From NCBI RefSeq assembly GCF_964213995.1, contig NC_135813.1:61008001-61072000 (forward strand): 64,000 nucleotides of DNA. Direction: 5' to 3'. Of the stretch, positions 1,361 to 64,000 are shown piece after piece. The DNA is from Mustelus asterias. Taxonomy: Eukaryota. The position numbers were made by a program, and so were the translations under genes. The stretch's first letter is position 1. The number at the start of each line of letters is the position of its first letter. A model generated the notes under the pieces. It saw nothing but the letters and a program-made list of their open reading frames with translations, was not told the origin of the DNA and ran no database searches.

Positions 1361-1920
1361 GAAGTGAGGGGAGGGGGGTGTTCCCCTTGCCGACACCAAC
1401 ACTCAGCTCCGGCTGTTAGATTAGTGTCTTGACATAGTCCGGTCCCAGCCAGGGGAATAATTGTAGTGCGGACAGGATGAAGCCCCTGAGTGACTCTTAA
1501 TAGGTCACTTAAGGGCCTCAATAGGCTCAAAGGTGCGCGTGCCACAGAACGAATTTGTTCTTCCCAATAGTTGGAGGAGATTTCTAATCATCACTGTAGA
1601 ACAGTTCAGTGAGGCGATGGTGAGATAGAGCTTCGTGCTTTTCGAGTGCATAAAGAGCCTGATGTGCTTTCAGATGATGCCTACAAGGGGGAGCATGCGG
1701 ATGGGAAAAAGAATGGGGGCCAGGGACATATTGTTGAGTTGCTAGCATGGGAGCAGGAAGAGAAGCCATTGCAGACAAATCTGTGGATATTATTTGATAA
1801 ATAATGATGGAGCCAGATCACGAGAATAGGCCCAAGCAACTGACAAACGGTGGAGATTTTTTGGATCGTGTGTTGAATCGTGTCAAAGACCGACGCCAGT
1901 CCGAAAACAGCGAGCAGTCG

Positions 1921-2240
1921 GGCGGCACGGTGGCACAGTGGTTAGCACTGATCCGTCACAGCGCCAGGGACCCGGTTTCACTTTGCAGCTTGAGCCACTG
2001 TCTGAGCGGAGTCTGCACGTTCTCTCCGTGTCTACGTGGGTTTTCTCCGCGTGCTTCGGTTTTCTCCCAAAGTCCGAAAGACGTGATGATTAGGTGCATT
2101 GGTCATGCTAAATTCTCTCTGTGTACCCGTACAGGCGCCGGAGTGTGGCGACTAGGAGATTTTCACAGTAACTTCATTGCAGTATTTGCAGTTTGGATTA
2201 CAACAGGTAATTGTTAGCCTACTTGTGACCAAAAATAAAG
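1921..2240 (+). mobile_element. tRNA-derived shark SINE (HE1/V-SINE-like)
   Basis: tRNA-like head GGCGGCACGGTGGCACAGTGGTTAGCACTG (A box), V-domain-like TGCACGTTCTC(T/C)CCGTGTCT(A/G)CGTGGG, and an A-rich 3' end with AATAAA. Family assignment is from recall of shark SINEs. Confidence 0.85.
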
Positions 2241-3459
2241 AAACTGTAAAAAACTTAAAAACTTTAAAAAACAGGAATAGTTTGCTATCGTTATAATTGA
2301 ATAACTTTGATAAGGGTCGTATCAGTATTGTGGCAGAAGCAGAAACGCGATTCTGGGAATTCAATGCTGGAGTTGTTGGAACGATAGTATGGATTTGGGG
2401 TTGGCAATTTCTTCAAGTGGTTTAGAGAGGAAATGTTAACTGAAGATCGGCAGTAGTTCACAAGGACAGAGGAACAATGCTGTTTGCAAAGAGAAGTTTG
2501 ATGGTAATCGGTGTGAAAATATAACAGTACCTGAGGAGAGATAGCAACTAATGATATCAGCGAAAGTGGAGACAAGAAAAGAAAGTTGGATGGTCAGTAA
2601 TTTAGCGGAAACATGGTCAACATGGGTCTAATGGAAAAACTGAGTTGCGAAAGCGAATGAGGGGATATATGAGAAAACAAATCCGATTCAACTATGATGC
2701 ATGCGAAGTAGTGCTTCCTCATTTCACTCCTAAATAGCTTCGCTTTAATGAAAGAGTGTGCCCTATTTTGCTGGATTGTGTTATTAGTGGAAATGATTTC
2801 TCTGGACCTATCCTTTCACACCCGCTGACCATTTTAAATACGTCGAATACGTATAGAGTGCAGGGGAAGACAGACAGTGAGTTGCCTTGAGTGATTTAGC
2901 ACAACAATCTTGCTATTCCAATCTATATACTCATTAAGGGTTTTAACTCTCTTCACTTTAAGCACTTGGTTTAGCAAAGCCACACAAATTGTTGCTTCAG
3001 CCATAGCCTCATATCAATCAAGAAACAAGAGATCCTGAAACATTTTCAACCACTTTTGTGCAAAATACCAGTGTTTGAAAGTCATGCCTTCTCAAATAGA
3101 AAGTGCCTCTGGCCGTCTGTATATAAGGCAGTCCCAAGTAAGGATAAAGTTCAACATTTCTTGCTGAGCCAGTGTTCCCGCACGTTATATTGGTGTTCAG
3201 TATGCTTCCATGATGCAGCATGGTCCAAATTGTCAAAACATGCTCTTGACTGCATCTATTCTTAGGTGCACTATTTTAAGATACTGCTTCCGCAATCCTT
3301 GCTGATATAAAAGTGTTTATCTTTTTATTACTGGATTGTAACTCTGGAAATATCTGAGTCTCTTTTAGTGTCTGAGGTGAGGCACTCTCACAGGAGATTC
3401 ACCTGGATGCTGTCTGGGCTGTGGTTATTTTTCGTAGAACAGAGTAAGCTGAGGTGTTA

Positions 3460-3790
3460 ACTCATCAAGGTGCAAATAATTATGAACGATACAGATAGGA
3501 AGAAACCTTTCACCTCAGTAGAGGGGTCAATAATCGGGGGGCATAGATTTAAGGTAAGGAGCAGGAGATTTAGAGGAGATTTGAAGAAATTCTTCTTCAG
3601 CCAGAGGGTGCTGGGAATCTGGAACTCAGTGTCTGCAAGAGTGGTGGAGGAAGGAACCCTCACGACACTTAAGAAACATTTTGATGAGCAATTGAAAAGT
3701 CATTGCATACACCGATACGGGCCGAGTGTTGGTAATTGAATTAGAATAGATAAGTTTTTTGGTGGTCGGCACAGACGCGAAAGGCCTCAT
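3460..3790 (+). mobile_element. CR1 LINE 3' fragment (ORF2 C-terminus); copies near 22590, 42090, 61585
   Basis: ORF 3470-3739 reads GHRFKVRSRRFRGDLKKFFFSQRVLGIWNS, the typical CR1 ORF2 C-terminal motif. Confidence 0.8.
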
Positions 3791-3929
3791 TCTGAGCTGG
3801 ATTCCCCCCTCCAGCTTTAAAGGGTAATACATAGTACGTTTCAGCAATCGGTCTTAAAAATTGAACCCTTCAGCAATTACTTCACCCTGACGAATCAGTC
3901 CTGTACCCATTCATCATACCAATATATCC

Positions 3930-4050
3930 GCGGCAATTGTACCGCCCCGCCCACCACGGAATCAGAGCGGACGAGGGCGGACAACGGAAATGTCCCTTGA
4001 CCTCTGGTGGGAATTTCGGGTCTCGATCGAGCGAGGACGTAAAAATCCCG
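3930..4050. mobile_element. Short GC-rich MITE-like element with imperfect terminal inverted repeats; present in every unit
   Basis: CpG-rich ~120-bp island bounded by GGCAATTGTAC...GTAAAAATCCCG; resembles abundant short non-autonomous shark elements (recall only). Confidence 0.4.
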
Positions 4051-4079
4051 TAGCTCAGTGTGAAAACCTAAATCCAGCA

Positions 4080-4790
4080 CTCCAGATGTGATCTGATCAA
4101 GGCTGTAGACAACAGAAAGCATTACTTCCCCACTTTTTAGTTTCAATGACCTTGTGATAAAGGCAGGCATTCGGTTTGATTTCTAATTTAACTTGTGTCC
4201 ATGAAGTTTTTAGTGACTTATGTCCAGGAACACCTAAATCCCTTTGTTCATTCAAAGCATCTCGCCGCGTAGCTTTAGGTAAATATTTCGAGCTACTCGC
4301 TATCATATTTTGGTCACAGAATCACAGAATTCACTGGTCCATTCACTTAGTTTATCTATGAAGAGTCAGCCAACTTGCGATACCTCCTTATCTTAAGCTG
4401 ATCTACCGATGTGTTTATGAAACTCTCTAACCCTCAATTTGAACGAAACTGCATTTGTCACATCCAGCCAATGAAGGAACAAATCCTTGATTGGCACTTT
4501 CTCTCTCCTACCCATAACCAATTCCCTACCAATATGTTCAAATAAATTATTTATTCCTTCTGCCACTGGATCTATTTTATGTCTCCCCGTTTCGGACTCA
4601 CTCACGGTGGAAAATCTTTCTCTGTGTTCCCGTATCACACCTTTTCCGAACATTAAAGCCGCCTATTACTCCTCCGCATCCTCTCCTCAGAGAAAAGAGC
4701 CCAACATATTCATTTTCCTGATAGGCACATCGTCCCAATCCCAGTAAATATCTGGCAAATAATTTCTGCACATTCTCATGTCCTACAAGA
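4080..4790 (-). mobile_element. Degenerate CR1 fragments (minus strand)
   Basis: Minus-strand EQRDLGV motif (ORF 4097-4306) and a CACAGAATCACAGAAT tail-like repeat at ~4315-4330. Confidence 0.55.
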
Positions 4791-5579
4791 TCATTTTTGA
4801 GGTATGTAGACTATAGATGAGGAAAACTCCATAAAACGCTAATAAATCCCCGGGTGTTTTGTTTTGTTCTTCTGGAAGTGCACCAGCACCTTGTTTGCAC
4901 TTTTTATCAACTGCGCAACTTCTTGCTACATATAGCAATTTATGTCTTGCAAGCCCAAATCTAACTGAAGAAATAAAACAATAACGTATCAAAGGGATGT
5001 CCTGTCGACTTTGTGATTCGTGTGACGATGAAGTTTAAAAAAACAGACTTTGTTCGGAGCTGGTTTGAGTCAATGCCTCACTGAAAATGCATCTGGGGAA
5101 GTTGACATGTTAGTAAAGCGCCTGCTTCAGTATGATCATTATTGGCCAATAAAAGCAATCGTATAGTTTGTTTAAAAAATGATTTGCAGTACCAGAACCT
5201 GCATTGTATCGGGTGTATTAAAAAATGTGGCAGTGACGGAGTTTGCCCTGAATATTGGTAATCAGGTGGTGTAGAAATGACTGCCCGTTTAATGTATTTT
5301 TGTAAATCTCGAGACGCAGTTCAGCCCTTTCAGTATAATGGCAGAGTGTAACGAGGTCCATTTTAAAAAAAAATGTTGCAATATTACTTCATGGTGCTAA
5401 TTTAATGTCACCGATCGTTTCCTTGTTGCGCCTGGATGTCATTGGCTTGAAATAAAATGTGCAGAGTATCACAATGATAGAATCTCACTATTTAATTCCC
5501 CTTGGAATGCTGCCATTAATTGTTTATGAGGGAAAGAGAGAGAATAACAGAACGTCGGTCGAGATAACGCTATAATGAT

Positions 5580-5585
5580 TTTATT
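5580..5585 (-). terminator. Candidate polyadenylation signal AATAAA of gene 1 (second, proximal AATAAA at 5721-5726)
   Basis: TTTATT on + strand ~195 nt downstream of the stop, followed on the sense strand by a pyrimidine-rich tract. Conserved at 24742, 44236 and 63740. Confidence 0.6.
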
Positions 5586-5779
5586 ACACAGCTGTATCAA
5601 TGACATTACAGTGAAGCTTTGATCCATTCAGGGTGAACACAGTTAATTTGAAACTAAGGGAGTCAGCCGATCTGCTACAAACTGTGATGAAATGTTTGAA
5701 ATGTTCCACTATTTGCGGAATTTATTTTGAAATGACACTTTACCAACGGCAGAATACAAGAATGCATTAGATGCGTGAA

Positions 5780-6102
5780 TCAGATACAGTTGGATCTGGA
5801 GATGCTTGTTTGAAGTGGGTTTGCTTGAGTCTCGTGTTTAACCACACAGGCGTAAAGCTCGTGTGAGTTCCACTCTGAGGCTAACAGAGTCAGATAACTG
5901 CTCACACTGAACGTGTTGTCCGCCTCTTGCTGGATCCGACTGGTCTCAACCCCATTCCTTCTGACGCTGCCATCTACAGTCCATTCAATCTCCGCAGCTC
6001 CTGGGTTAAAACCGCTCACCAAACACACCAGGGTCGCCATGTTCTTCGCTGTGATTTGATCTGCTGAAGGCGGAAGGACAGACACAATGGGGCTCCGTGG
6101 AT
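5780..6102 (-). CDS. IGLC: Ig light-chain (lambda/type II) constant exon, gene 1
   Basis: (N)PRSPIVSVLPPSADQITAKNMATLVCLVSGFNPGAAEIEWTVDG...FSVSSYLTLLASEWNSHELYACVVKHETQANPLQTSISRSNCI*. C1-set Cys/Trp/Cys and penultimate Cys for the H-L bond. Acceptor ctactttccAG at 6103-6104, phase 1, matching the J donor. Confidence 0.97.
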
Positions 6103-7699
6103 CTGGAAAGTAGAGACAAATGATTGTACATCCATTAAGAATCGGCATAAATGACTGAATCGTTGTTTCACCTTCTTCAAATTGTTTTTTAAAATCGGTA
6201 TTATTCTACGGAATGTATAGATTTTACATTGTGGAGTCATATTGTTGCCAAATGCAAAAAGGCCATGACTCTCGTTTCTGGAACACATACAACGTGAGAA
6301 GGTTTTCCTTTTTTCCCTGATTGGACAGGAACATGCAAACAAAATCTGATCTAAAGGAAATAGTGGAGTTTGAAATATTAAAGAGAAAAATAAGACGGGA
6401 GGTTTATTGCATCCAGATGTGATCTGAGGCAAAGCTGTCCGACCAAAGAGAATTTCAGAACAACGTCAATCACTCAGAATTTGGGCTCAATGTTGGAACT
6501 TATGCTGACCGCAACATTTCTATATTTTGGAACTCAAAAAACTCGATTCAAAACAATGAAATCGATTGTTTGCTTTTGTCACCATTTACACTTCTCTGAC
6601 GCAAGTCCGACATACTGGACTGATGTTTGGATTTGTGTACATTCTTGCCACGGCTTCACACGGTGTCGCGCCCAGACCAACAGTGACGATGTAGCGTAAA
6701 TCTTAACAAATAACTCCCTGTCGCAATGGAAATGTTTGGAGACATTTTTTGCGAGTGGAGTGTCACAAAAGATTTGTTACAGCAAAGAGGAAGAGTTTTT
6801 AACAAATATTGTAAACAATTCTAGTATATTAGAACATAACGTAACGACACCCTCAAAAGGCCATTAATAAACCAAACATGTCCTCATAATTATTCATCTC
6901 TCACACCTTTTCGCCGAAGCAGAAGGACTGTGAGATCTTACTGTGCTTAGATAGGGAGCCATGATTCTGACATTTGAAGAATGATTCTACTTCACAAGCA
7001 CATAATTGTGAGGATGTTCTGAGGTCGTGGTCGGCGCCAAATGAATGCAGGTTTGCATTTTCTTTCCTTTGTCATGAGTAGATATTCGCAAAGCTGAAAG
7101 GGCGTTGTCTCAGAATCTTGTCTCTTTAAGTCACCATTTATCACTTAAGTTACCATCTATCACAGTCAATGGAGAAACGCTCAGTAAATAGGTTGAGGCG
7201 TCGTAAGGCATCGAAGAAAGGGTTCAAATATGAAAAGCCATTACTAACTAAAAGGATAAGGCTGACGTTTTACAATTCTCCCTGACATTGAGGTATTATG
7301 TCGGCTACAACAACAGTATGAGGTTTGTCGCTGTCGGTGTAAAAATCGATTGTCTTTGGAGCTGCAAATTCGTCTTGTTTTTTTTTGGAATGTAATTTGA
7401 ATGTTGAAACTGAGTCGGCAGACAAATGCCGCCAGCCCTTATTTCAATGTCGGTATCGTCTTCCTGCGCAACTGAGAGTTTCGCTGAATAATCTCAAATG
7501 TCTGCACCGATGAGCAGGTGTGACGATCAACTTCTATTTAAACGGAAGCGTACTTAAGTGAATTATTTTTACACCGGCATTTTCTCCAGATATGATTTCT
7601 CAAAGTAACAACTAAAATATTCAAGAGCATTTTTCTCCTTTTTGCCTCATGCTGGTCCATTTCACCGTAACATAGTCCAATAAACATATGACTTGAAGA

Positions 7700-8972
7700 A
7701 GAAAATAAAAAATAAAGGAAAGGAAGATTGAGAAGGGAAGAGACCCTGACCATAATTTTCCAATCGTGCCTGGAGCAGGCTTGGCTCTCAGAGACAGGAG
7801 GACAGATGAAATTGTGAAAGGGCGAAAGGGGGGTAACATAGTTTTAGACCAGTGAACCAAACCTCACTAAAGGGAGAACAATTGGAATAAGCGCGGTTTA
7901 ATCAAATACAGCAGTCACGGCTTTGCTGGCGGAATATCTTACCTCACAGCGTGAATTGGTATTTTTGAGCAGGTAGCATGAGCGGTGAATGACGGCAATA
8001 TTTTTAGTATCGTCTACATGGATTTTAGCAAGGCTCTTGTTAAGTTCACACATAGGTATGAACAGGTTGGATGCGAAATTGGTTCAGAGGCAGGAAGTAA
8101 AGGGTCCGTATATCAATGAGTGCCTCTATGATTGTTGTCAGATAATACAAATTTGACAATGTGTTTGCTAACGAAGAAAGCTGGATAATGCAGGAAGACA
8201 ACAATGGACTAGTCAGATAAGTTCAACAGCGGCAAATGGAATTAAATGCGGAAAAGTATGAGGAACTATATTTTTCAGGAAGGCCAATAAAACAAGCGAG
8301 TACACTTTATAAATGGGACAATGCCGAGAAATGTAGAGAAACTGAGTGAACTGAAAATGCATTTCCGCAGATCCCGAAGGCGGCTGAGCAAGTGGATATG
8401 GTAGCAAAGAAGGCATGTGAGGCAGTTACATTTATAAGCCGAGGTATAGATTGTTAGAACTTGAAGGTTATGCTGAAACTGCTGGAAAGGTGCGTAGGAA
8501 ACATGTAATTGTATGAGAGCGAGTACAGGGGAGATCGAGAGGGATGTCGGCTGAAATGGAATATTTAGTTATAAGTGTTGAATTGGCCAGCGTTCATTTC
8601 TTTGGAACAGACGAGGCTGAAGGGAGATCTAATGGAAGGCATTATATTCAGAGGTGTCTGGACAGAATGGATAGGAAAACAGTTTTGCCAATGTTTGACG
8701 GGTCGATAAGAACGGCACTTGGATTTAGCGTTAGAAGTAGAAGGTTTAGCGGAGATTCGAAGGGAATAGTTTCACCCAGAGGGTTTTGGGGGATGTGGAA
8801 CCTACTGCCGGGAAGGCTGTTAGTGGCAAATTAATGGACACTTAAACGCACATACAATGTGTAATCGAAAGGCTCATGAATAAATGTTAGATTGTTCCTT
8901 GTGAACCAGTGCAGACGCGATTGACCAAGTAGGTTGTAACAATGTTGCAAAGATGTATCATTCTATGATTCT
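7700..8972 (+). mobile_element. Old degenerate CR1 LINE (RT to 3' tail) in the J-C intron; copies ~26880-28150 and ~46370-47640
   Basis: GTCTACATGGATTTTAGCAAGGC (VYMDFSKA) at ~8012, a CR1 C-terminal GxWNxLP motif at ~8790, and a TTCTATGATTCT tail at ~8961. Many frameshifts. Confidence 0.75.
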
Positions 8973-8999
8973 GCGAATATATTATATTGCTTTCCTCCC

Positions 9000-9365
9000 T
9001 CACTGACGCACAGGGGCTACAGTGTGCATATTTCTGAGGCACCCTGCCGCAACTCCGACAAGAGCTTCCAAACCAGCCATGTTTTCCACTGGACGAACAC
9101 ACGGGCAGCAGATGCACGGTAGCACCACCAGTTGGTAAATTCCCATCAATCCACACAGCATACCAAAGTAGAACTGTACCGCCTTTCCTTCACTGTCGCT
9201 TGGCCAAAAACTCTTAACCCTCTCCCTAAGAGCTCTGCGATGCATCTCTGACACATGGACGACATCGGTTTGAGAATGCGGCTCACTATCACTTTATCCA
9301 TGGATATTAGGCGGGGTGCAATGAATGTTAGCTTTCTGGTCACATCCCATGAATCAATGAAAATG
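9000..9365 (+). mobile_element. 3' end of a second shark CR1/L2-type LINE family
   Basis: GGGCAGCAGATGCAC...CTTCACTGTCGCT...CACATCCCATGAATCAATGAAAA tail; homologous to the 3' part of 15125-16770. Confidence 0.6.
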
Positions 9366-10453
9366 GCAGTAATCCCCATGTTTTGTTGTATTACTACTCA
9401 CTGACAATCACAGAACCAGCAGCAGAGCTGAACGAGTCCACAACAATACTCAAAAACCTGACAACCTATTCCGAGACATTCCAAAGCAACCGATTGGATA
9501 GGAAGAAAATGGAACGTAATTTCCGAGTGAAGCAAACATTCTGCGCATCGATTATGTTTCTTACTACGTTATCCAGTAACACTCAGGATCGATTAGTACT
9601 GGCGGAATTCTCGCAACAATATGGTTATTTTGGTCACCTGTGATTAATGCGAAATGTTTGGCTGAGAATCTTGTACCGAACTGTTTTCGGTGAGTTTGGG
9701 GACCAGTGGGAATGGGTCCCACCCAGGTACCACACTATCCTTCCGCAGGCTGAATGCAAGAAAGATCTTAAAACACAATGTTGCTTCAAGTGGAACAAAG
9801 CAGCCTGATGTGAACGTTTTGAATGTAATTCCAGCGTTTTAAACCAGACTACAAGGGCAGCATGTGAAACAGCCTGAACCACTATATTGCTTTCATACAA
9901 TCATGGAATTATAGAGCACACAACGGGGCCCATCGGAGCTTGTAAAAAACCTGCCCACTCAGATCATTTTCATGCCTGTTTTCTTCACTTTTGAAATGTT
10001 TATCGTCTTGCTAATTATAGTTCCGCTCGCGGTGTTCATATAGCGAGGGTACTCCACTCCTAACACTGGCTGAGCGAATAAAAACATCCCATCCTTCCAG
10101 CGATTGCATTCAAATAATGTCCTCGCACTGCCGACTGGATCAGATGGCTCAAACGTCTGGAGAGCCGCAGCAGATCAGACCGTAAGCTTCCAGTGAAATG
10201 AATTTCACTCGAAATTAAATTGCCCCTTTACCCGATCCCATAATTGGACACAATCTAGAAAATCACCAAAGTTCTGAGCCCAGCTATCACTGCAATGTCT
10301 TGGCTGCTGACTCAAGGATCCCCCATAAAAATATTTTCGCAGCAACCATTTTGATTTGAACTCATTCAATCCACCGATCCGACCGTTTCGAAGTACATTT
10401 TGTTATTTAGATAGCGTCACAAATGCTAGAGGACATTTAAGTGATTTACTTAC

Positions 10454-10801
10454 TGTTCAGATTCAACTTCGTTCCTCTCCCGAAAATGAATCTATATGGA
10501 CTGCTGAGCTGAGCAGCACAGTAATAATCTGCCGCGTCCTCCGATTGCACGTTGGTGATGGTTAAATGCATCTTGTTACTCGATGAGTCCACAGACCCGG
10601 TGAATCGATCTGGAATACCCGAAGCTGTATCAAAGCTCTCATCCCAAACAAGCACAGGGGCGCTGCCGGGTTTCTGCCAGTACCAGCTCGTGTAGTAGCT
10701 GCTAATGCTGCCTCCGGACATGGTGCAAGTGATGGTGACGGTCTCTCCCGTCGAGGACGAAATGGATCCTGGTTGGGTCAGGACAGGATCCGCAATTGTA
10801 C
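10454..10801 (-). CDS. IGLV: Germline-joined V-J exon, Ig lambda (type II) light chain, gene 1
   Basis: (S)TIA-DPVLTQPGSISSSTGETVTITCTMSGGSISSYYTSWYWQKPGSAPVLVWDESFDTASGIPDRFTGSVDSSSNKMHLTITNVQSEDAADYYC-AAQLSSPYRFI-FGRGTKLNLN. YYC runs in frame into FGxG with no RSS. Acceptor caccAG at 10802-10803; donor A/GTAAGT at 10453. Confidence 0.97.
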
Positions 10802-10941
10802 CTGGTGAAATGCAAAGTATTGTCAGTCACACACTGTGAAATGTTGAATATAGCTTACAATTCAGATTCGTTAAATCACAAGCGCAAAAGCAGATAATGT
10901 GAAAAAAATGAGCGTTACTTCAGGTTGACGCCCGTACTTAC

Positions 10942-10990
10942 TGTGGAAACAGAGTATCAGTGCGGCGAGAACTCCAATCGATTGTGTCAT
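10942..10990 (-). CDS. IGLV: Leader (signal peptide) exon, gene 1
   Basis: ACC-ATG context; MTQSIGVLAALILCFH(S); donor A/GTAAGT at 10941; 140-bp intron. Exons of 49+348+323 nt = 720 nt = 239 aa + stop. Confidence 0.95.
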
Positions 10991-11059
10991 GGTGAAGGTT
11001 TGGGGAGAGGAAGAAGGAGAATAAATCCTGACACGAATGTGCTTCTGAGTCCATTCCAA

Positions 11060-11130
11060 ACTCCTTAAAAAGATTCAGACACCGCAGGGCGAATGAATAT
11101 TAATTACGTATGCAAATTGCCTGTCACGTG
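11060..11130 (-). promoter_or_regulatory. Ig light-chain promoter: octamer ATTTGCAT (11110-11117), E-box CACGTG (11125-11130), TATA-like TTTTTAA (~11065-11071)
   Basis: Perfect octamer in the light-chain sense orientation ~120 nt upstream of the ATG; conserved in all three genes. Confidence 0.85.
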
Positions 11131-11471
11131 ATATTAGGCCAAAGATCTCCATTTCGGTATTGTCTGATATTTGGAGAATGCGCACGTCAGCCATTTTGGA
11201 ACAGAAGAAAAATAAATCTCCCAAGCCACAGAATAGCATGCAAAATGGCTCAATAACCTCCCCCCAAAAAATAAACGGTGCGGTGAAACACAAAGAGATT
11301 AAATGGATCGTGTCTTGATCTCTGGAAGCCTGCCGATTACAATAAATAAATATTGCGGACAGAAAGCTGTTTAATAGGTGCATCGTTTTTGGTGAATAAA
11401 TTAGAGACGAAACGTGCGAGTTGAGATTTCATGTGCACACAGAGAGGTGTAAGGGAATTGACCACCGTCCG

Positions 11472-11708
11472 NNNNNNNNNNNNNNNNNNNNNNNNNNNNN
11501 NNNNNNNNNNNNNNNNNNNNNNNNNNNNNNNNNNNNNNNNNNNNNNNNNNNNNNNNNNNNNNNNNNNNNNNNNNNNNNNNNNNNNNNNNNNNNNNNNNNN
11601 NNNNNNNNNNNNNNNNNNNNNNNNNNNNNNNNNNNNNNNNNNNNNNNNNNNNNNNNNNNNNNNNNNNNNNNNNNNNNNNNNNNNNNNNNNNNNNNNNNNN
11701 NNNNNNNN
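11472..11708. repeat. N-masked tract, probably a (GATA/GATG)n microsatellite
   Basis: The homologous tract in unit 3 is preceded by visible GGATAGATAGATGGA. Spans between fixed flanks are 238/246/242 bp, differing by multiples of 4. Confidence 0.7.
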
Positions 11709-13329
11709 CGCCAAGCCCCGAGGAACATTTTATTACCTACCTGGAATGTGATTGAGGTCCCAAAACTCTCCACTCAGCACTATTCAAGTGTTGGAAACCC
11801 ACGGCATTCACAGTGAGTTAAGCCTTGGCAAAATGAAATGCTCCAGGAAACAGAGCTTTTCGCATGATTTTCGTTATTGGATTTGAGGGGTACATTTGCT
11901 GTCATTTGAAAGGATGAGTTTGAGAATGTCAATGCACTGGCCGACGTCGGAATGAGCTGAAAGTAGCAATTTTTTCAAATCAGATTTCTGATGGCAGGTG
12001 ACCCTACCCCCAACACTACCCTCGCTTCCCGCCGCACAACAGTATTGCAGAAGTCATCGTACAATGTTCCATTGCTCACTCATTTGAAAAGTTAAACAAA
12101 ATCAGGCAAGCCAATTAAATGCTGATAACGTTAGCTTATCACACACCTTCACCCCATGTGTCCTTGAACAATTGTGAGAAGTAACCTTTTGATTATGCAG
12201 CTGAGGCGCACAGAGGAGAACGAGAAGAAATGAATTAATTACTTCGCCTGGAGAGCTGACGATCGCGGCTACAGGTGCAGTTGCGTCAGTGTAAAGAATT
12301 CGAGAAGCTTCATCGCAGAAGGAGAGCAATCAGTCAATCGCATCCATGTCGGTTCTGTAAAGGAGCGATCGAAGTGGAATTTCTGTCTTGATCTTACTCC
12401 AATTTTCGACACATTTTCCACCTTTTTGAGAGTGATTGTTGAATCTTCTTCCGCCAGCCTTTGATCCAATTGACTCCAGATCATTAAGAGTCGGAACACA
12501 TTTAACCACCACCACCCCTGTTCCCGGGTTATTTCAAATGTTTGCCTTCTGGTGATCAAACATCCCGACATTTGAATCAGCTTCTACTTTCTTTATCCAA
12601 CACCTTTAAGAACATCTTTATCAAATCTACTGTGCGGCTTTAAGGAGAACAACCCCAGGGTTCTCTCGTCTTTACATCTAACTGAGGGCCTTTATCGCTG
12701 AAAACATGCGAATACACCTTCTTGCACTCTCTCCACGGCCTTGAAAGACATTCGAAGAATATTGTCAAGAACTGGACTCAATATTCTAGCTAGGGTCTAA
12801 CAAAGATAAAAGGGTTAACATATTTGCTTGCATTTGTACCCGGTTGTTGGAATTTTACTGACTCCCGTGCCGACAGAATGAAGGGTGGGGAAGGAATATT
12901 AAAATTTCTCCACCACTGGGAAAATTTCCAACCGGCGGTCAGGTAGAGGGATCAGGAACAGATAATTAAAGTTGTTCGGCTGAAAGATATCGCAGGATAT
13001 TTACTGAAAGATATGTCTCAGGTCCACGTCATGCAGTGCAGTCAGTACCCGGGGAGTGAGAGGCTTAAGGCCTTGCCTGTGGGTGGAATGTACAGAGTTG
13101 ACATCTGCAGTGTAGAGAGAGGGAGAGAGACAGATACTAGTTCAGTTTAATGCAACAAGACAGCAGGAGCGAGAGAAGAACCACCCTGATGGCGTGCCAG
13201 CGGAATCGGAAAACGATTCGCATCGGGCCAGGAATGCAGGTTAAATTTGACTGAAGACGGTACGCAGCTGAAATAACAGACAGAAAGTGGGCCTACTTCA
13301 TGGAGATGTTGAAGTCCCAATAGAACCAA

Positions 13330-15122: not shown

Positions 15123-15124
15123 AT

Positions 15125-17865: not shown

Positions 17866-17874
17866 TTCCGTCGC

Positions 17875-50044: not shown

Positions 50045-50112
50045 CCTTAAAAAGATTCAGACACCGCAGGGCGAATGAATATTAATTACGTATGCAAATT
50101 GCCTGTCACGTG
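50045..50112 (-). promoter_or_regulatory. Octamer promoter of gene 3 (ATTTGCAT at 50092-50099, E-box CACGTG)
   Basis: Same motifs as genes 1 and 2. Confidence 0.85.
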
Positions 50113-50467: not shown

Positions 50468-50695
50468 GGATAGATAGATGGANNNNNNNNNNNNNNNNNN
50501 NNNNNNNNNNNNNNNNNNNNNNNNNNNNNNNNNNNNNNNNNNNNNNNNNNNNNNNNNNNNNNNNNNNNNNNNNNNNNNNNNNNNNNNNNNNNNNNNNNNN
50601 NNNNNNNNNNNNNNNNNNNNNNNNNNNNNNNNNNNNNNNNNNNNNNNNNNNNNNNNNNNNNNNNNNNNNNNNNNNNNNNNNNNNNNNNNNNNNNN
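50468..50695. repeat. (GATA/GATG)n microsatellite, mostly N-masked, unit 3
   Basis: Visible GGATAGATAGATGGA leading into the N run at 50483-50695. Confidence 0.75.
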
Positions 50696-53600: not shown

Positions 53601-56600
53601 TGCAAAGGCCCGCAGCGCTGGGGCATCTGGCTGCCTGGAATGTGATTCACAAAACTTTAGCATGAAGCTGCAAGTGATTAGGAAAACAACTGCAATGTTG
53701 TCACTTATTGCAAGTGGGATGGAATGTAAGAGTAGAGAAGATTCGCTACAAAGAGCTCATCTGAAGTACTTTCCTGTTGGCACGTGTACCTCAGAACGGA
53801 TACAATAGCACCAGCGACAGTTCGGAGAAAGGTTCACCCATCAGATGAAAGGGATATCATATAGGGAAAGGTTGGACAGGTTGGACCTGTAGCCATTAGA
53901 GTTTAGAAGAACTCGAGGTGATCCTGCTGAAACGCCTCCGATCCGGAGGGGAATTGAGATGGTGAACGCTGAGGAAGTGCCTTCCCTCGAAAGAGACTAG
54001 AAGGAGGGGACATGAATTAAAATAAGAGGTTTTCCACTTGAGATGGAGATAAAGAGCATTTCATTCTCTGTGAGAACCATTAGCCTATGGAACTCTCTTT
54101 ACCAGAGATATCCCATCGTGAATGGTGGTGGATAATTAAACAACTGACTGGAGGAGAAGACATCACAAATTTCTCCATCCTCAATAAGCAGTGAAAAAGA
54201 TAAGGCTAAAGCATTCGCAAAAATCGTCTGTCACATGTGCCAAGTGGATGATCCATCTTGGGCTTCTACAAAAATGGTCAGTATCACGGATCTCAATCTT
54301 CAGTCAATTCAATTCGCTCCACGTGATATCAAGAAGTGCCCGAATACGTTGGATACTGCAAAGGCTTTGGGCTCCAACAATATTCTATCGACAGTCCTGA
54401 AGACTTGTGCTCCAAACGATGCGACCCCGCCAGTCAAGTTGTTTCAGTACATCTACAACACTGGCATCTACCCGGCATTGTAGAAAATTGCCCATTCATG
54501 TCCTCTACGCAAAAAGAAAGGCAACACCAACTTTATTCGTTAGCCATCAGGCCACCCCAGATCATCAGTAAATTGATGGAAGAGCTCATTAACAGCGCAA
54601 TGAAACGGCAGGAACTTAGCAGGAACCTACTCTCTGGCACATAGTTTGGATTCCGCTAGTCACTCAGCGCCTCACTTCATTACAGCCTTGGGTCAAACAT
54701 GGACAAGAGTAGTTGAATGCCAGATGTGAAGTGACTGCGTTTGACGTCAAGGCAGCACATGTGGAATTAAGGAGCCCGAGCAAGACTGGGGTCAATTAGA
54801 ATCAGAGGGAAAACTACGCTGGTTGGAGTCATACCTGGCACAGAGGAAGAGTGTTGCGGTGGTTGGAGTTCAATCATCTAATTTGCAAACTTCACTGCAG
54901 GAGTTTCTCAAGATGGTGTCCAAGGCCCAACCATCTTCAGCTGCTCTATCAATGACCTTCCTTGCATCATAATGTCAGCAATGATCGCACAGTGCACAGT
55001 ACCATACCCGCATCCTCAGAGGCTGAAGCCGTCCGTGTCCAAGTGCAGTAAGCCCTGGACAATATCCAAGTTTGTGTTGACAAGTGGCAAGTAGTGCCAG
55101 GAAATGACCATCTCCAACAACAGAGAATCTAACCATTGTCCCTTGACATTCAATGGTATTGCCATCAATGTCGACATCCTGAGGGCGACCATTGACCAGA
55201 AACTGAAGTGGTCTTGACATTTAAATATGGTGGCTACAACAGCAGGTCAGAGGTTATGAATCCTGTAGCAAGTATCTCACTTCCTGACTAGCCAAACCTA
55301 TCCACCATCTGCGAGGCACAAGTCAAGAGTGTGATGGAATACTTTGCACGAGCCAGGAGAATGCAGCTTCTATAACTTTCAGGAAGTTCACACCATCCAG
55401 GACAACACTTGACTGGCACCGCTTCCACAAACTCCCTCCGCCACGATGAACAGTGGCAGCAGTGTGCACCATCTGCAAGATGCACTGCATAAACCCATCC
55501 AGGCTCCATTGGCAGCATCTTACAAAGTCACATCGCAACCGTCCAGAAGGACAAAGGCAGCAGACACATGGGGACACAACTACCTTCGCGCTTTCCTCCA
55601 AGTCATTCGCAATCTGACATGGGGATGTATTGCTTACCTAGACCACAGGGACTGCGCTGATTCAGCAAAGCAGTTCACCACCATCATCTCGAGGGCAATT
55701 AGCGGTGAGGAATAAATGCTGGTCTAGTCAGCGATGCCCACATCACGTAACAAAATGCAGAATTCGATAGATTCCTGATTGAAAAGGGATCCAAAGAGTA
55801 TAGGGGTGGACAAGAATGTGGGGTCGAGCCCACGATCACATCAGCCACGACCTTAGGCCTAATCTTCGTTCCAATTCATATGATCGTATGATTCGTATTT
55901 GCGCCCTTTTTGACTCCTTTTATCCTATTAAATTTCTGAACCTTCGTATCCATTAATGTGGCACTGACAGCATTATCTTTAGTGAATGAGGCAGGAAAGG
56001 AAGTGATAGTGAAACATTTTGTGACACTGGGTTCTTACTGCTTCGAATCATTCGGATTCCCTGATATTATGGACATTCACCACTGAAAAGGGGAACTCAT
56101 TAAACATCCGAATTAACTGACAATACCTGAAGAGAATATTCTGAAAACGACTTTCATGTCCGAATGCCTATTTTCCAAGTGTCCACGTATTTTGCCAGGA
56201 ATTGATATTTTGAGATATTTTAACCGCAAATACACTTCATGTAATAACACGGTCCTTGGTATACCAAGTCCAATATTGCCATCTGCTGGTTCAGCCGCAA
56301 AAAGCGCGCAGTTTCATTGGGATGCGTTCTGGACTTTTTTCATCTATTGTGCGTAGTGCAATAGAAAGCAGGGGGAATGAAATGACAATTATAAAATAAA
56401 ATTCTGGATAAAGTCAGGAGATCTGGTCGCACTTGTGAGGAGCGAAACACAATTTCTGTATAAGGGTAATTCGCACTGCCGTGTTCGATGAAACAGTGTT
56501 CAGTCTCTAATAAATTAAGCGTAAATCTCATCAGTACTTTTATCATGCATTTCAAACGTTTCGAAGACAGGTGCAGGCGCAGCCTCAAACTAGGGAGCAG

Positions 56601-59600
56601 GAACCTACACTGTAAAGCATGGCGGACGCTGTCGTCCGGCGACGAATGATCGAATTAGCATTGCAGAGTCCTGGAACAAGCAATGATTCTAAATCCCACC
56701 ATGGTATCTGGCAATAAGCCTTGAACAAATTAGTTGTCTTAATGTTAACCACGAAACTACTGAATTGCTGAAAAAAAACATTCGCTTCATTAACATCATT
56801 CCGGGCAGGAAATCTGCCATCTTTACTGAGTACATACGTGACTCCACGTTTTCCGTCGCGAAATAGATACAGAAGTCTGAGGACACGTACCAACCAACTT
56901 CAGAACAGCTTCTTCACTGCTGCCCTCAGACTTTTGAATGGACCTGCCTCGCATTAAGTTGATGTTTCTCTGCACCCGAGCTATGACTGCAACACTACAT
57001 TCTGCACTCTCTCCTTTCCTTCTCTGTGAACGGTACGCTTTGTCGGTATAGCATGTAAGAAACAACACTTGTCACTGTATACGAATATACAAGACAATAA
57101 TAAATCAAATCAAATCAAATCAAAAACATTTGTGCTATTAGGGAAACATTTGCACAATACATGGCCAGCCATGTTGGTAACACGCTGTTAGCAGTGGTGT
57201 TGATGATGAACCTCCTGATCAGATTGCTTTACCTGTTACAGAAAGAGCCCGATCACCTGAGATGATTCTAAAAATAACAGCAAAGGCCAAAGCGGCAGTG
57301 GCGCAAGGTTTGTTTTCAATTATGGAGGTAGTTACAGATGAAAATTAGAAGCCAGGAGTGAATGAGTTTGGGGGAGGGAGAGGCGAACATCAGAGCGCAT
57401 GTACAACCTAGCAGAAAGCAAGAACACAATTGGTGCCATGCTGAAAACATACTATTATTTATATAAATTGGAACGAGTTGAGGCCACAGCACTGATCATT
57501 GTGGCACACCACCCCTTACATCTTGCCAATCACAAAATTGTCCCTTTTGCCCACCCTCTGTCTCCTGTTCGCTCGCAGATTTTCTGTCCATGACCCCACA
57601 CGATAAACTCTCCTTTTCCGCAATACCCTTTGCTTTGACATCTTATTAAATGCTGACTGAAAATCACAGTACATCCACCTGCTCACCTTTATCCACAGCA
57701 CGCTACTTCTTCAAATCACTCCAGTAAATTGGCTGAACATGAATTCCCTTTCACAAAACTGTGTTGGCTCTATCTGATGACCGTGATTTGACTTCTGTGC
57801 CCTGCTATCAAATCTTTAATAACCGCTGCTACCATTTTCCTTATATGTCATACGGTGAGCTAACTGGTGTTGTTCAGCTGACATGTGTTGTTCCCTGCTA
57901 TAGGTCTCTTTTTCCTATTGCATTAAAGTGCGACATTCGCTGTTTTCCAATCTAATGCACACTTCCCAGAAACTGGGGAATTTTGGAAAATTGAAACCAA
58001 CCCATCAATTGTCCCTTTAGAGACCTTCGGGTGAAATCCATCAGGACCTGAGGACTCATCAGCCCACATCTTCAACAACTTCTTAATGTCATTTCCCTGA
58101 CGATTCTAATTTTCTTGAGTCCTTCTCTTCCATTTCCTGCTCTATAGCTATTTCTGTGATAGAACTTGTATCCGCTACAGTGAAGACTGAAAGCAAAATG
58201 CCTGTTCTAGTCATCTGCAATCTTTTTGTTTGCGATAAATTCGCCAGACTCAATTTCTATCGAACTGTCGCCCACTCTATGAACGGTTTTCTTTTTTTTA
58301 TCGTTTACCTTCACAATTTTAAGTTGATTTATTAGTGTCACGAGCAGGCGTACATTAACATTGCAATAATTGACTATGAAATCCCCCAATCGCCACACTC
58401 CGGCACCTGTTCGGGTACACTGAGGGAGAATTAGCAATGCTAAGCACGTGCCACAGTGCCAAAGGCAAGAAATAACTGACAAAACCCCAGAGTATTCGGG
58501 AAATAAATGAACTGGTTTGGAAGCATCTATGGAGACAGAAACAGAGGGAAAATTGCGCCTCCAAATGTGCCAGATGTAAATACATAAAATACATGTGATG
58601 AGTTTTGTTGATCTGAAATTCACTTAAAGAGTACAGGAAACCGATCCAATTAAAACTTCAAGATGAAAATTGGATAGATTCATGAAACCGATGTCTGCAT
58701 GAAATGCCCATCGTGCACTGGAGTGCGATTACTTGGATAGCTCTTTCAAAGAGTACAGTGGGTCAATGGCATTTTTGTGTTGTACTCTTCAGTGAAATGG
58801 TTGGGAACTGAGCTCAATATAAGGGTACTAAGTCATTTTTCAGTTGTGTTTCCCTTTGCAGGGAACCAGATGTTTATCCATTCTATGTACAAGTATTTTT
58901 CTTTAGCTGGTGACATAAAGTTGCATAGCCAGTTGTAATGATCAGGAATGCAAGAACTTAAATGATGACGGAGCAGATTCCGAAGTCTCTTGTAAAAGTC
59001 AATAGAACTTACATGTGAAACGAATAACAATTGAAAGATTATGGCGAGAGAATGTCTTGGATTAACTGGCCATCGTCACTTCTCTTTGCTTCTATTCTAA
59101 ACAATGGTCCACTGATCCTGAGTCTAAGCCCCCATGTTCTGGATTTCACAGCCAGGGCAAACATCCGGCTGTACTCTTCAGTTGCAAGGACAGGGTCTTC
59201 GGATAGTCGGTTTGCCTGCGCCGCCAACTCACCTCCCCGCTTATGCTGTCCGCTTTGCAGCCATTGGACATATGGTGGAGACAGAAATCGGGCAAAGGCA
59301 AGACATGCACATCCTTCTGCGGAGGAGTTACCACCTGAGAGGACTGATGGCCAACCGTTTGTGCAGCAACTCTGTAGGTTCGAGTCCTGGCGACAGTTCG
59401 GATTACAACCGGTCTCCAATGACGATATCTAATGTCGGCCAAATGAGGAAGACCCTTGGAGCTTTGGTGGGGCCGAGGGAAGTGAGGGGAGGGGGGTGTT
59501 CCCCTTGCCAACACCAACACTCAGCTCCGGCTGTTAGATTAGTGTCTTGACATAGTCCGGTCCCAGCCAGGGGAATAATTGTAGTGCGGACAGGATGAAG

Positions 59601-60037
59601 CCCCTGAGTGACTCTTAATAGGTCACTTAAGGGCCTCAATAGGCTCAAAGGTGCGCGTGCCACAGAACGAATTTGTTCTTCCCAATAGTTGGAGGAGATT
59701 TCCAATCATCACTGTAGAACAGTTCAGTGAGGCGATGTGAGATAGAGCGTCGTGCTTTTCGAGTGCATAAAGAGCCTGATGTGCTTTCAGATGATGCCTA
59801 CAATGGGGAGCATGCGGATGGGAAAAAGAATGGGGGCCAGAGACATATTGTTGAGTTGCTAGCATGGGAGCAGGAAGAGAAGCCATTGCAGACAAATCTG
59901 TGGATATTATTTGATAAATAATGATGGAGCCAGATCACGAGAATAGGCCCAAGCAACTGACAAACGGTGGAGATTTTTTGGATCGTGTGTTGAATCGTGT
60001 CAAAGACCGACGCCAGTCCGAAAACAATGAGCCGTCG

Positions 60038-60360
60038 GGCGGCACGGTGGCACAGTGGTTAGCGCTGCTCCCTGACAGCGCCAGGGACCCGGTTTCACTT
60101 TGCAGCTTGAGCCACTGTCTGAGCGGAGTCTGCACGTTCTCCCCGTGTCTGCGTGGGCTTTCTCCGCGTGCTTCGGTTTTCACCCGAAGTCCGAAAGTCG
60201 TAATGATTAGGTGCATTGGTCATGCTAAATTTTCTCTCAGTGTACCCGTACAGGCGCCGGAGTGTGGCGACTAGAAGATTTTCACAGTAACTTCATTGCA
60301 GTATTTGCAGTTTGGATTACAACCGGTAATTGTAAGCCTGCTTGTGACTAAAAATAAATA
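60038..60360 (+). mobile_element. tRNA-derived shark SINE (copy in unit 4)
   Basis: Paralog of 1921-2240. Confidence 0.85.
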
Positions 60361-63300
60361 AATTGTAAAAAACTTTAAAACTTTAAAAAACAGGAATAGT
60401 TTGCTATCTTTATAATTGAATAGAATGTAACTTTGATAAGGGTCGTATCAGTATTGTGGCAGAAGCAGAAACGCGATTCTGGGAATTCAATGCTGGAGTT
60501 GTTGGAACGATAGTATGGATTTGGGGTTGGCAATTTCTTCAAGTGGTTTAGAGAGGAAATGTTAACTGAAGATCGGCAGTAGTTCACAAGGACAGAGGAA
60601 CAAGGCTGTTTGCAAAGAGAAGTTTGATGGTAATCGGTGTGAAAATATAACAGTACCTGAGGAGAGATAGCAACTAATGATATCAACAAAAGTGGAGACA
60701 AGAAAAGAAAGTTGGATGGTCAGTAATTTAGCGGAAACATGGTCAACATGGGCCTAATGGAAAAACTGAGTTGCGAAAGCGAATGAGGGGATATATGGGA
60801 AAAAAAATCCGATTCAACTATGATGCATGCGAAGTAGTGCTTCCTCATTTCACTCCTAAATAGCTTCGCTCTAATGAAAGAGTGTGCCCTATTTTGCTGG
60901 ATTGTGTTATTAGTGGAAATGATTTCTCTGGACCTATCCTTTCACACCCGCTGACCATTTTAAATACGTCGAATACGTATAGAGTGCAGGGGAAGACAGA
61001 CAGTGAGTTGCCTTGAGTGATTTAGCACAAAAATCTTGCTATTCCAATCTATATACTCATTAAGGGTTTTAACTCTCTTCACTATAAGCACTTGGTTTAG
61101 CAAAGCCACACAAATTGTTGCTTCAGCCATAGCCTCATATCAATCAAGAAACAAGAGTTCCTGAAACATTTTCAACCACTTTTGTGCAAAATACCAGTGT
61201 TTGAAAGTCATGCCTTCTCAAATAGAAAGTGCCTCTGGCCGTCTGTATATAAGGCAGTTCCAAGTAAGGATAAAGTTCAACATTTCTTGCTGAGCCAGTG
61301 TTCCCGCACGTTATATTGGTGTTCAGTATGCTTCCATGATGCAGCATGGTCCAAATTGTCAAAACATGCTCTTGACTGCATCTATTCTTAGGTGCACTAT
61401 TTTAAGATACTGCTTCTGCAATCCTTGCTGATATAAAAGTGTTTATCTTTTTATTACTGGATTGTAACTCTGGAAATATCTGAGTCTCTTTTAGTGTCTG
61501 AGGTGAGGCACTCTCACAGGAGATTCACCTGGATGCTGTCTGGGCTGTGGTTATTTTTCGTAGAACAGAGTAAGCTGAGGTGTTAACTCATCAAGGTGCA
61601 AATAATTATGAACGATACAGATAGGAAGAAACCTTTCACCTCAGTAGAGGGGTCAATAATCGGGGGGCATAGATTTAAGGTCAGGAGCAGGAGATTTAGA
61701 GGAGATTTGAAGAAATTCTTCTTCAGCCAGAGGGTGCTGGGAATCTGGAACTCAGTGTCTGCAAGAGTGGTGGAGGAAGGAACCCTCACGACACTTAAGA
61801 AACATTTTGATGAGCAATTGAAAAGTCATTGCATACACCGATACGGGCCGAGTGTTGGTAATTGAATTAGAATAGATACGTTTTTTGGTGGTCGGCACAG
61901 ACGCGAAGGGCCTCATTCTGAGCTGGATTCCCCCCTCCAGCTTTAAAGGGTAATACATAGTACGTTTCAGCAATCGGTCTTAAAAATTGAACCCTTCAGC
62001 AATTACTTCACCCTGACGAATCAGTCCTGTACCCATTCATCATACCAATATATCCGCGGCAATTGTACCGCCCCGCCCACCACGGAATCAGAGCGGACGA
62101 GGGCGGACAACGGAAATGTCCCTTGACCTCTGGTGGGAATTTCGGGTCTCGATCGAGCGAGGACGTAAAAATCCCGTAGCTCAGTGTGAAAACCTAAATC
62201 CAGCACTCCAGATGTGATCTGATCAAGGCTGTAGACAACAGAAAGCATTACTTCCCCACTTTTTAGTTTCAATGCCCTTGTGATAAAGGCAGGCATTCGG
62301 TTTGATTTCTAATTTACCCTGTGTCCCTGAAGTTTTTAGTGACTTATGTCCAGGAACACCTAAATCCCTTTGTTCATTCAAAGCATCTCGCCGCGTAGCT
62401 TTAGGTAAATATTTCGAGCTACTCGCTATCATATTTTGGTCACAGAATCACAGAATTCACTGGTCCATTCACTTAGTTTATCTATGAAGAGTCAGCCAAC
62501 TTGCGATACCTCCTTATCTTAAGCTGATCTACCGATGTGTTTATGAAACTCTCGAACCCTCAATTTGAACGGCAAAATGATCTCGTTCCAGAAATGATCC
62601 TCAGGAAACTGCATTTGTCACATCCAGCCAATGAAGGAACAAATCCTTGATTGGCACTTTCTCTCTCCTACCCATAAACAATTCCCTACCTATATGTTCA
62701 AATAAATTATTTATTCCTTCTGCCACTGGATCTATTTCATGTCTCCCCGTTTCGGACTCACTCACGGTGGAAAATCTTTCTCTGTGTTCCCGTATCACAC
62801 CTTTTCCGAACATTAAAGCCGCCTATTACTCCTCCGCATCCTCTCCTCAGAGAAAAGAGCCCAACATATTCATTTTCCTGATAGGCACATCGTCCCAATC
62901 CCAGTAAATATCTGGCAAATAATTTTTGCACATTCTCATGTCCTACAAGATCATTTTTGAGGTATGTAGACCATAGATGAGGAAAACTCTATAAAACGCT
63001 AATAAATCCCCGGGTGTTTTGTTTTGTTCTTCTGGAAGTGCACCAGCACCTTGTTTGCACTTTTTATCAACTGCGCAACTTCTTGCTACATATAGCAATT
63101 TATGTCTTGCAAGCCCAAATCTAACTGAAGAAATAAAACAATAACGTATCAAAGGGATGTCCTGTCGACTTTGTGATTCGTGTGACGATGAAGTTTAAAA
63201 AAACAGACGTTGTTCGGAGCTGGTTTGAGTCAATGCCTCATTGAAAATGCATCTGGGGAAGTTGACATGTTAGTAAAGCGCCTGCTTCAGTATGATCATT

Positions 63301-63939
63301 ATTGGCCAATAAAAGCAATCGTATAGTTTGTTTAAGAAATGATTTGCAGTACCAGAACCTGCATTGTATCGGGTGTATTAAAAAATGTGGCAGTGACGGA
63401 GTTTGCCCTGAATATTGGTAATCAGGTGGTGTAGAAATGTCTGCCCGTTTAATGTATTTTTGTAAATCTCGAGACGCAGTTCAGCCCTTTCAGTATAATG
63501 GCAGAGTGTAACGAGGTCCATTTTTTAAAAAAATGTTGCAATATTACTTCATGGTGCTAATTTAATGTCACCGATCGTTTCCTTGTTGCGCCTGGATGTC
63601 ATTGGCTTGAAATAAAATGTGCAGAGTATCACAATGATAGAATCTCACTATTTAATTCCCCTTGGAATGCTGCCATTAATTGTTTATGAGGGAAAGAGAG
63701 AGAATAACAGAACGTCGGTCGAGATAACGCTATAATGATTTTATTACACAGCTGTATCAATGACATTACAGTGAAGCTTTGATCCATTCAGGGTGAACAC
63801 AGTTAATTTGAAACTAAGGGAGTCAGCCGATCTGCTACAAACTGTGATGAAATGTTTGAAATGTTCCACTATTTGCGGAATTTATTTTGAAATGACACTT
63901 TACCAACGGCAGAATACAAGAATGCATTAGATGCGTGAA

Positions 63940-64000
63940 TCAGATACAGTTGGATCTGGAGATGCTTGTTTGAAGTGGGTTTGCTTGAGTCTCGTGTTTA
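63940..64000 (-). CDS. IGLC: 3' end of Ig light-chain constant exon, gene 4 (partial)
   Basis: KHETQANPLQTSISRSNCI* with TGA at 63940-63942. Confidence 0.93.
   Translation of the reverse strand, partial: KHETQANPLQTSISRSNCI

Follow-up and report, generated by a model that had tools for sequence, protein, structure and literature searches.

Six closely related tandem units of germline-joined immunoglobulin lambda genes in Mustelus asterias

The window, a stretch of 64,000 nucleotides of contig NC_135813.1 of Mustelus asterias, lies in a head-to-tail array of immunoglobulin lambda light-chain genes with a spacing of about 19.5 kb, and contains three intact L-VJ-C genes and the tail of the C exon of a fourth. 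The locus is probably best explained as six germline-joined lambda genes, likely multiplied as whole units, reshuffled by conversion and diversified in their CDRs, whose expression, as we propose, would be under a leaky exclusion. Judged by their sequence, the six units are typical of the lambda (type II/NS3) clusters of cartilaginous fish. Germline-joined, multi-copy lambda genes have been known for decades, and the novelty given to them in an earlier, sequence-only reading of this DNA was overstated. The array illustrates how birth, conversion and CDR-directed selection may build an inherited antibody repertoire.

Comparison of the window with itself by BLAST gave offsets of 19.1–19.5 kb with 96.5–98.9% identity (Table 1). 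The sequence-only reading had counted at least four tandem units of about 19.5 kb; this was borne out, and the number of close units rose to six (U1–U6). Pairwise they differ by 0.8–3.3%, with five at 0.8–1.9% and the sixth at approximately 3%. On both sides of the six-unit run, further units of about 90% identity continue with the same period within a larger lambda locus, and about 17 VJ matches were present in the 444 kb examined around the array. The search for an internal tandem repeat gave two minor rows, neither of which explains the 19.5 kb unit, and the comparison of units supported the duplication of whole units. The statement that the complete units carry the same transposable-element relics holds for the spacer relic and fails for the 321 bp insertion of the J–C intron. 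Similarly, the LINE boundary does lie where the array was said to begin (position 1361), but unit homology returns to the left of the LINE at 94%, and the LINE merely interrupts the U1 flank. This LINE is presumably of CR1 type; the names given to the repeats are provisional and derive from BLAST matches to other DNA. Seven of seven spacer and flank ORFs were without a Pfam match. The spacing itself is real but not unique, as the rearranging kappa V genes of the same genome are about 27–86 kb apart.

Table 1. Positions of the units, exons, repeats and motifs within the window.
Feature	Position	Strand	Remarks
Young LINE (presumed CR1-type), 5' part	1..1359	-	Long RT-like frames, close copies elsewhere; inserted in U1 3' flank only
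Unit U1	1360..20497	-	19,138 bp; self-BLAST
U1 constant exon (C1-set)	5780..6102	-	
U1 germline-joined VJ exon	10454..10801	-	CDR3 AAQLSSPYRFI
U1 leader exon	10942..10990	-	
U1 promoter octamer	11110..11117	-	
CTCF-like motif (presumed)	17293..17304; 36781-36792; 56278-56289	- (17293..17304)	One per unit, ~6.5 kb upstream of VJ
Unit U2	20498..39985	-	19,488 bp; self-BLAST
U2 constant exon	24941..25263	-	
Interspersed-repeat-like insertion, J–C intron	28733..29051		321 bp; in U2, U3, U5; absent from U1, U4, U6
U2 germline-joined VJ exon	29944..30291	-	CDR3 GTELSSPDRFI
U2 leader exon	30432..30480	-	
Interspersed-repeat relic, spacer	34620..36133		Common to all units
Unit U3	39986..59477	-	19,492 bp; mosaic: C-side half U6-like, VJ and upstream half U2-like
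U3 constant exon	44435..44757	-	
U3 germline-joined VJ exon	49434..49781	-	CDR3 GTELSSPDRFI
U3 leader exon	49922..49970	-	
Unit U4 start (3' flank)	59478..64000	-	Intact U4 gene runs past window end
U4 C exon, last 61 nt	63940-64000	-	Only U4 exon part inside window

On the minus strand, the genes of U1–U3 are each built of three exons (leader, joined VJ and C) that have GT/AG splice sites and encode a reading frame of 239 aa, confirming the earlier description of intact L-VJ-C genes in the three complete units. One leader, one V-set VJ exon and one C1-set exon make up the minicluster plan of cartilaginous-fish lambda. A promoter octamer was found 127–129 nt before the ATG in all six units, and the promoters, previously called nearly identical, measured 98–99.6% identity. 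Each of the six predicted proteins matches, letter for letter, a RefSeq entry of Mustelus asterias named “Ig lambda-1 light chain-like”. The nearest VJ match in another species was the sandbar shark lambda (86%, versus approximately 50% to the kappa V genes of this genome). In a tree of 41 lambda-type rows only, with the kappa and sigma outgroups left out, the six units formed one clade (support 100/99) beside the sandbar lambda.

V and J are joined in frame in the six units. A scan of 230 kb for recombination signal sequences (RSS) gave two weak matches, neither at a V or J end; as a positive control, it recovered a perfect 12-RSS for every one of 18 kappa V genes in other parts of the genome, and a 23-RSS for 15 of the 18 kappa stretches retrieved. 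The split V and J with 12/23 RSS of rearranging kappa genes were not found in the array genes, and none of the 17 VJ matches in 444 kb was a split lambda gene. The reading of the genes as fused without RSS, and as needing no rearrangement, is upheld. Its further claim that such joined VJ segments are typical of type II/lambda chains agrees with the available passages of two reviews, according to which every lambda gene so far studied in cartilaginous fish is germline-joined and belongs to a set of multi-copy clusters (PMC5192425, PMC4279169). Across the lambda family, CDR3 lengths range from 5 to 12, which is compatible with several joins or with later indels, and the 11-aa CDR3 is common.

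How a B cell chooses among such genes is a real question, posed long ago, which the array sequence does not answer. We propose that each unit would be transcribed from its own octamer promoter without a RAG step, and that exclusion would be leaky and probabilistic: each B cell would activate a few light-chain loci instead of obeying a strict one-gene switch. Pairing with the heavy chain would then decide which light chain reaches the surface. This proposal is drawn from heavy-chain work and from a 2017 paper on shark light-chain exclusion. For shark heavy chains, limiting trans-factors and chain-pairing preference have been proposed, in the part of the source available (PMC2435157).

Insulated units, in which a B cell would commit stochastically to one promoter in the style of protocadherins or odorant receptors, would provide strict RAG-independent exclusion; we consider this unlikely. 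An exact CTCF-like motif, a candidate CTCF site, occurs once in each of the six close units. This is one inherited site rather than six observations, and 6 of 100 shuffles reached the motif count of the window at one mismatch. Of the four homologous sites in the 90% units, only two keep the motif exactly, so that its conservation does not exceed the background of the flanking DNA; near the kappa clusters retrieved it was absent. An odorant-receptor-like, one-gene-at-a-time idea was once proposed for skate Ig genes, and the same source, in its accessible part, deems the link unlikely (PMC2435157). If promoter choice were true, antibody genes would have a way of exclusion that is independent of RAG and could be read from six distinguishable CDR sequences. 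The locus is a resolved test bed, with near-identical promoters and six distinct VJ proteins, where single-cell RNA could count the active units.

The distribution of shared variants was uneven: 96 sites group U1 with U4, 34 group U2 with U5 and 25 group U3 with U6, while a conflicting pattern {U1,U4,U6} comprises 40 sites, mostly in the upstream half. U1 and U4 differ by 1.02% and U2 and U5 by 0.81%, whereas U1/U4 are separated from the remaining units by about 1.8%; in its C-side half, U3 resembles U6. These patterns suggest that a triplet was duplicated (U1~U4, U2~U5 and, in part, U3~U6) and then reshuffled by conversion. In the history that we propose, one already-joined ancestor was amplified, as the shared 11-aa CDR3 frame and J suggest. 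Unequal crossing-over likely multiplied whole 19.5 kb units, which gene conversion then likely reshuffled, and a three-unit block of 58 kb would have been duplicated. The amplification had been called recent, which goes too far: the period is older than the six-unit clade, and conversion resets identity. With the epaulette-shark rate of 7e-10 per generation, 1% divergence would correspond to millions of generations, a figure to be read as resting on the rate of another species and on identities reset by conversion.

Two haplotypes of a three-unit array (U1–U3 and U4–U6) set in tandem by the assembly would produce the same triplet pattern, including the likeness of U3 and U6 in their C-side halves. 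We regard this artefact as improbable. U3 is followed by a spacer of the internal type, unlike the divergent terminal type after U6, and this spacer is an exact copy of no other; U4 lacks both the divergent left kilobase of U1 and its LINE. Three other samples also contained the unit in their short-read contigs. Two of the runs compared had transposase-adapter ends, and no splice joints were seen in these contigs, which has no bearing on expression. Run X1 gave a depth of 53–67 for contigs of the unit, against 13–16 for single-locus variants. Although contig depth is no proper copy number, this gives 10.5–14.2 per copy with six copies, near the single-locus value, and about twice that value with three; it weakly suggests about five to six copies. 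The divergence of about 1% exceeds the diversity of 0.2% reported for another shark species in the portion of the source available (PMC10587355). False haplotype duplication is thus disfavoured, and even three units would remain a real array.

Among the six copies, 12 of 93 CDR sites were variable, compared to 11 of 243 in the framework (p=0.013) and 190 of 4327 (4.4%) in the intron (p=0.001). These values depend on CDR boundaries set by eye and on six related copies, which represent few independent events. Every variable CDR codon alters an amino acid. The six VJ proteins are distinct, with four different CDR3 sequences of constant length. AGY serine codons, which are prone to hypermutation, are favoured in the CDRs (7 AGY to 1–3 TCN, versus 2–3 AGY to 8–9 TCN in the framework), and this bias hints at somatic hypermutation. 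The fixed CDR3 described by the sequence-only reading is therefore fixed in length only. Diversification was likely driven by selection on inherited CDRs, together with somatic hypermutation in B cells.

A reading of most copies as silent passengers of a neutral amplification would fit with the neighbouring lambda clusters, where some copies are truncated or stop-bearing. It is very unlikely for the array, as six of six genes are intact with promoter and splice sites and variable sites are rarer in the C exon than in the intron (9/323 versus 190/4327) but commoner in the CDRs.

Least probable of all is that the inherited V differences were written in the germ line by AID and the tandem substitutions of shark hypermutation. 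Of the 23 variable VJ sites, 7 fall in adjacent runs with the same split, compared to 14 of 408 for non-coding DNA, and tandem changes are the mark of shark somatic mutation in the available parts of two sources (PMC4279169, PMC5931798). However, with outgroups included one of the three runs turns out to be two single changes, non-coding DNA inside the hypermutation zone shows no elevation (3/199 sites variable in the leader and leader intron, 30/983 in the proximal J–C intron), on older branches the V exon has 9 changes in runs versus 3.8 expected, a ratio like that of the distal intron (52 versus 26), and selection plus conversion explain runs at amino-acid-changing sites. The run and zone tests largely reject it; for the kappa genes, used as a control for tandem changes, most of the signal in the flank alignment came from a divergent stretch (138/344 sites variable).

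Joined families are known from other light-chain isotypes. In the germline-joined kappa genes of the nurse shark (NS4/type III), V and J are likewise inherited as an in-frame fusion, which has been ascribed to RAG acting in germ cells; their split sister genes persist and allow the joins to be reconstructed (PMC2193156, as far as its available text goes), whereas no split lambda gene was seen among the VJ matches in the 444 kb around the array. An exact RAG-type signal joint was observed in a kappa cluster of Mustelus asterias on contig C8, at 50402777/8. In the part of the literature available, inter-cluster signal joints are listed as postulated, with shark evidence for coding and hybrid joints only (PMC2193153). 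The C8 joint would carry more weight if it is germline. The skate type I (sigma-2) family resembles the array in its many joined clusters, with differences concentrated in the CDRs and replacements above the neutral level; it is expressed and possibly somatically mutated. It is of another isotype and has at least 89 clusters, versus about 17 VJ matches in 444 kb here (PMC2192082, from its accessible part).

Lambda sets of 5–10 RefSeq proteins at least 90% identical to one another lie on one contig per species in Heterodontus francisci, Hypanus sabinus and Amblyraja radiata, and lineage-specific expansion therefore recurs. The closest systems are the known cartilaginous-fish lambda genes (horn shark type II, nurse shark NS3, sandbar AAA86749.1), which share with the array the germline-joined L-VJ-C minicluster without RSS, the octamer promoter, the presence of several copies, a VJ with 86% identity to the sandbar lambda and the 11-aa CDR3. 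In the literature searched, no paper was found that gives the spacing or copy history of lambda clusters. Compared to these known genes, the genomic layout is resolved here, with six units at a 19.5 kb spacing and a history that looks like that of a duplicated triplet.

Self-comparison showed a tandem array extending from base 1360 to the window end, with a period of 19.1-19.5 kb and 96.5-98.9% identity. Units U1, U2 and U3, whole in the window, each contained an intact gene predicted to encode 239 aa, with V-set and C1-set domains assigned to the exons by Pfam; the C-exon end was the sole coding part of U4 inside the window. Every unit had its own octamer promoter, and the promoters were 98-99.6% alike. 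The sequence-only reading had described such intact leader-VJ-C genes, nearly identical promoters and V and J fused without RSS, and on these points it was borne out. A scan of 230 kb for RSS-like motifs gave two weak matches, none at a V or J end. The identical scan of the kappa-type V genes on contig C8 found a perfect 12-RSS at 18 of 18 and a 23-RSS in 15 of the 18 V stretches, so that the absence of RSS from the lambda units is real.

Features of the lambda locus (C13, contig coordinates; window, positions in the window)
Feature	Location	Length	Strand	Remarks
Leader exon	U1, U2, U3	49 nt	minus	in each unit
Leader intron	U1, U2, U3	140 nt	minus	in each unit
VJ exon	U1, U2, U3	348 nt	minus	V and J in a single frame; in each unit
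J-C intron	U1, U2	4351 nt (U1), 4680 nt (U2)	minus	
C exon	U1, U2, U3	323 nt	minus	in each unit
Motif, presumably CTCF-like	window 17293-17304, 36781-36792, 56278-56289			about 6.5 kb upstream of VJ
Truncated VJ exon	C13:61148171-61148398			broken in framework 3, start codon lost
Orphan C exon	C13:61162239-61162556			looks intact, without its own upstream VJ

Around the window, which spans C13:61008001-61072000, a stretch of 444 kb held 17 VJ and 20 C matches. Six consecutive close units, U1-U6 (VJ at C13 61018790 to 61115705), extended the earlier count of at least four. Five were 0.8-1.9% apart, and divergence of its upstream end put U6 at about 3%. All six genes were intact, and their proteins were letter-identical to six RefSeq entries (immunoglobulin lambda-1 light chain-like [Mustelus asterias]); the genes were therefore already annotated. 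Units of about 90% identity flanked the array on either side with a period of about 19.3 kb, the same as that of the array, and the unit length thus predates the six-copy clade. The description "recently amplified" does not fit the unit length. Most TE relics were common to the units as had been proposed, but a 321-bp insertion was restricted to U2, U3 and U5, and the start given for the array, 1361, marks the boundary of a young LINE within the flank of U1. This LINE, with long reverse-transcriptase frames (window 1-1359, C13:61006460-61009360), occurred only in the 3' flank of U1. Farther out, lambda clusters 52-70% identical lay in both orientations, with stops in some. The divergent lambda clusters were spanned by another duplication, older and about 57-58 kb long (C13:61232145-61337281, 91-95% identity). 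Two more joined VJ exons without RSS (C13:60078381 and 60169716), 47-50% identical to the query and with a longer CDR2, were located about 0.9 Mb from the array.

Variants in common paired U1 with U4 (96 sites), U2 with U5 (34) and U3 with U6 (25), the pattern that duplication of a 58-kb block of three units would leave; such an event may have given the U1-U3/U4-U6 pairs. Two haplotypes placed in tandem would also leave this triplet pattern, but such a false duplication is improbable: the spacer following U3 was of the internal type and an exact copy of no other spacer, U4 lacked the divergent left kilobase of U1 and its LINE, and in the short-read run X1 six copies correspond to a depth of 10.5-14.2 per copy, three copies to about twice that. 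The short-read contigs, from three samples of one organism, contained 47-68% of the sampled words. X1 gave six long unit contigs at depth 53-67, variants mapping to one or two flanking loci at 13-16 and a variant common to the four 90% units at 48; contig depth is not copy number and X1 may stem from an animal other than the one assembled, and these values lean slightly towards six copies over three. The array is real in the assembly and probably real in the animal. In X5, from a second organism (about a fifth of words in common; window 5400-11400), unit-like contigs had depths of 45-67 and single-locus contigs near 9-10, a faint hint that this relative might also carry a multi-copy array.

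A conflicting split, U1, U4 and U6 (40 sites), lay largely in the upstream half, where U3 was close to U2 (0-1 differences per kb across 2 kb). The older flanking units had letters in frameworks and CDRs that recurred in U4 and U5. Unequal crossing-over with gene conversion would be the simplest account of these sequence patterns. In a tree of 41 of the 95 collected proteins, all lambda-type, the six formed a single clade (support 100/99) next to sandbar shark lambda and two genes of the array's flanks, and the horn shark copies grouped by themselves.

Variable sites among the six copies numbered 12/93 in the CDRs, 11/243 in the frameworks, 190/4327 in the J-C intron and 9/323 in the C exon. 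Every variable CDR codon altered the residue; six of the 11 framework changes were silent. CDR serines were encoded by seven AGY versus one to three TCN codons, framework serines by TCN; AGY bias in CDRs favours hypermutation. The CDR3, previously called fixed, was constant in length (11 residues) but not in sequence, with four versions across the six genes. Adjacent multi-base changes were enriched in the VJ exon (7/23 sites versus 14/408) and resembled the tandem somatic mutation of sharks. Neither the leader intron nor the proximal J-C intron had such an excess, and on older branches the VJ excess was no stronger than that of the distal intron; we therefore ascribe these changes to selection and conversion.

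The main value of the array is as a test bed for exclusion. We favour leaky activation of these units followed by selection at the protein level, on the basis of the argument for shark heavy chains in PMC2435157 that limiting factors switch on few loci in any one cell and that the surface receptor can be determined by the pairing of chains. One motif per unit that we take to be CTCF-like, exact in all six close units and at two of four older homologous sites, leaves some probability to a model of insulated promoter choice, but the copies descend from one site and are conserved no better than background.

On C8, split V genes of kappa type numbered at least 18 over 50.18-51.08 Mb, about 27-86 kb apart. 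In their V-J spacer a 61-bp tandem repeat varies in copy number, and the V-J distance accordingly ranges between about 0.6 and over 1.7 kb. At C8:50402777-50402778, one cluster had the layout V-12RSS-spacer-23RSS, then 12RSS-spacer-23RSS-J, the 23-RSS and 12-RSS being head-to-head with the middle two heptamers fused exactly; there was no second match genome-wide. Over the 19.4 kb upstream, identity with an intact cluster 150 kb away (C8:50553154) was 99.6%. This match stopped exactly at the joint, and the J side was 97.5% identical to the same cluster. Such a form would result from RAG linking the signal of J in one cluster with that of V in a different cluster, and the arrangement is a candidate inter-cluster RAG product. 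It may be germline, a somatic molecule that entered the assembly, a misassembly or a second allele. Joints of this form are listed as postulated in PMC2193153, and the literature searched contained no report of an inter-cluster signal joint. The joint merits separate examination.

According to PMC5192425 and PMC4279169, lambda/type II genes are germline-joined in every cartilaginous fish studied, in agreement with the sequence-only reading; the nurse shark has six loci, and IgM clusters are at least 120 kb apart. Skate is described as having 89 or more joined type I clusters and CDR-biased replacement changes (PMC2192082), joined kappa genes are attributed to germline rearrangement (PMC2193156), and the distribution of miniclusters in genomes is called poorly known (PMC12227049). 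The literature searched, which covered few subscription papers, gave no account of lambda cluster spacing. The array is known in kind; its units follow each other at ~19.5 kb, compared with the 27-86 kb between kappa V genes of the same genome.
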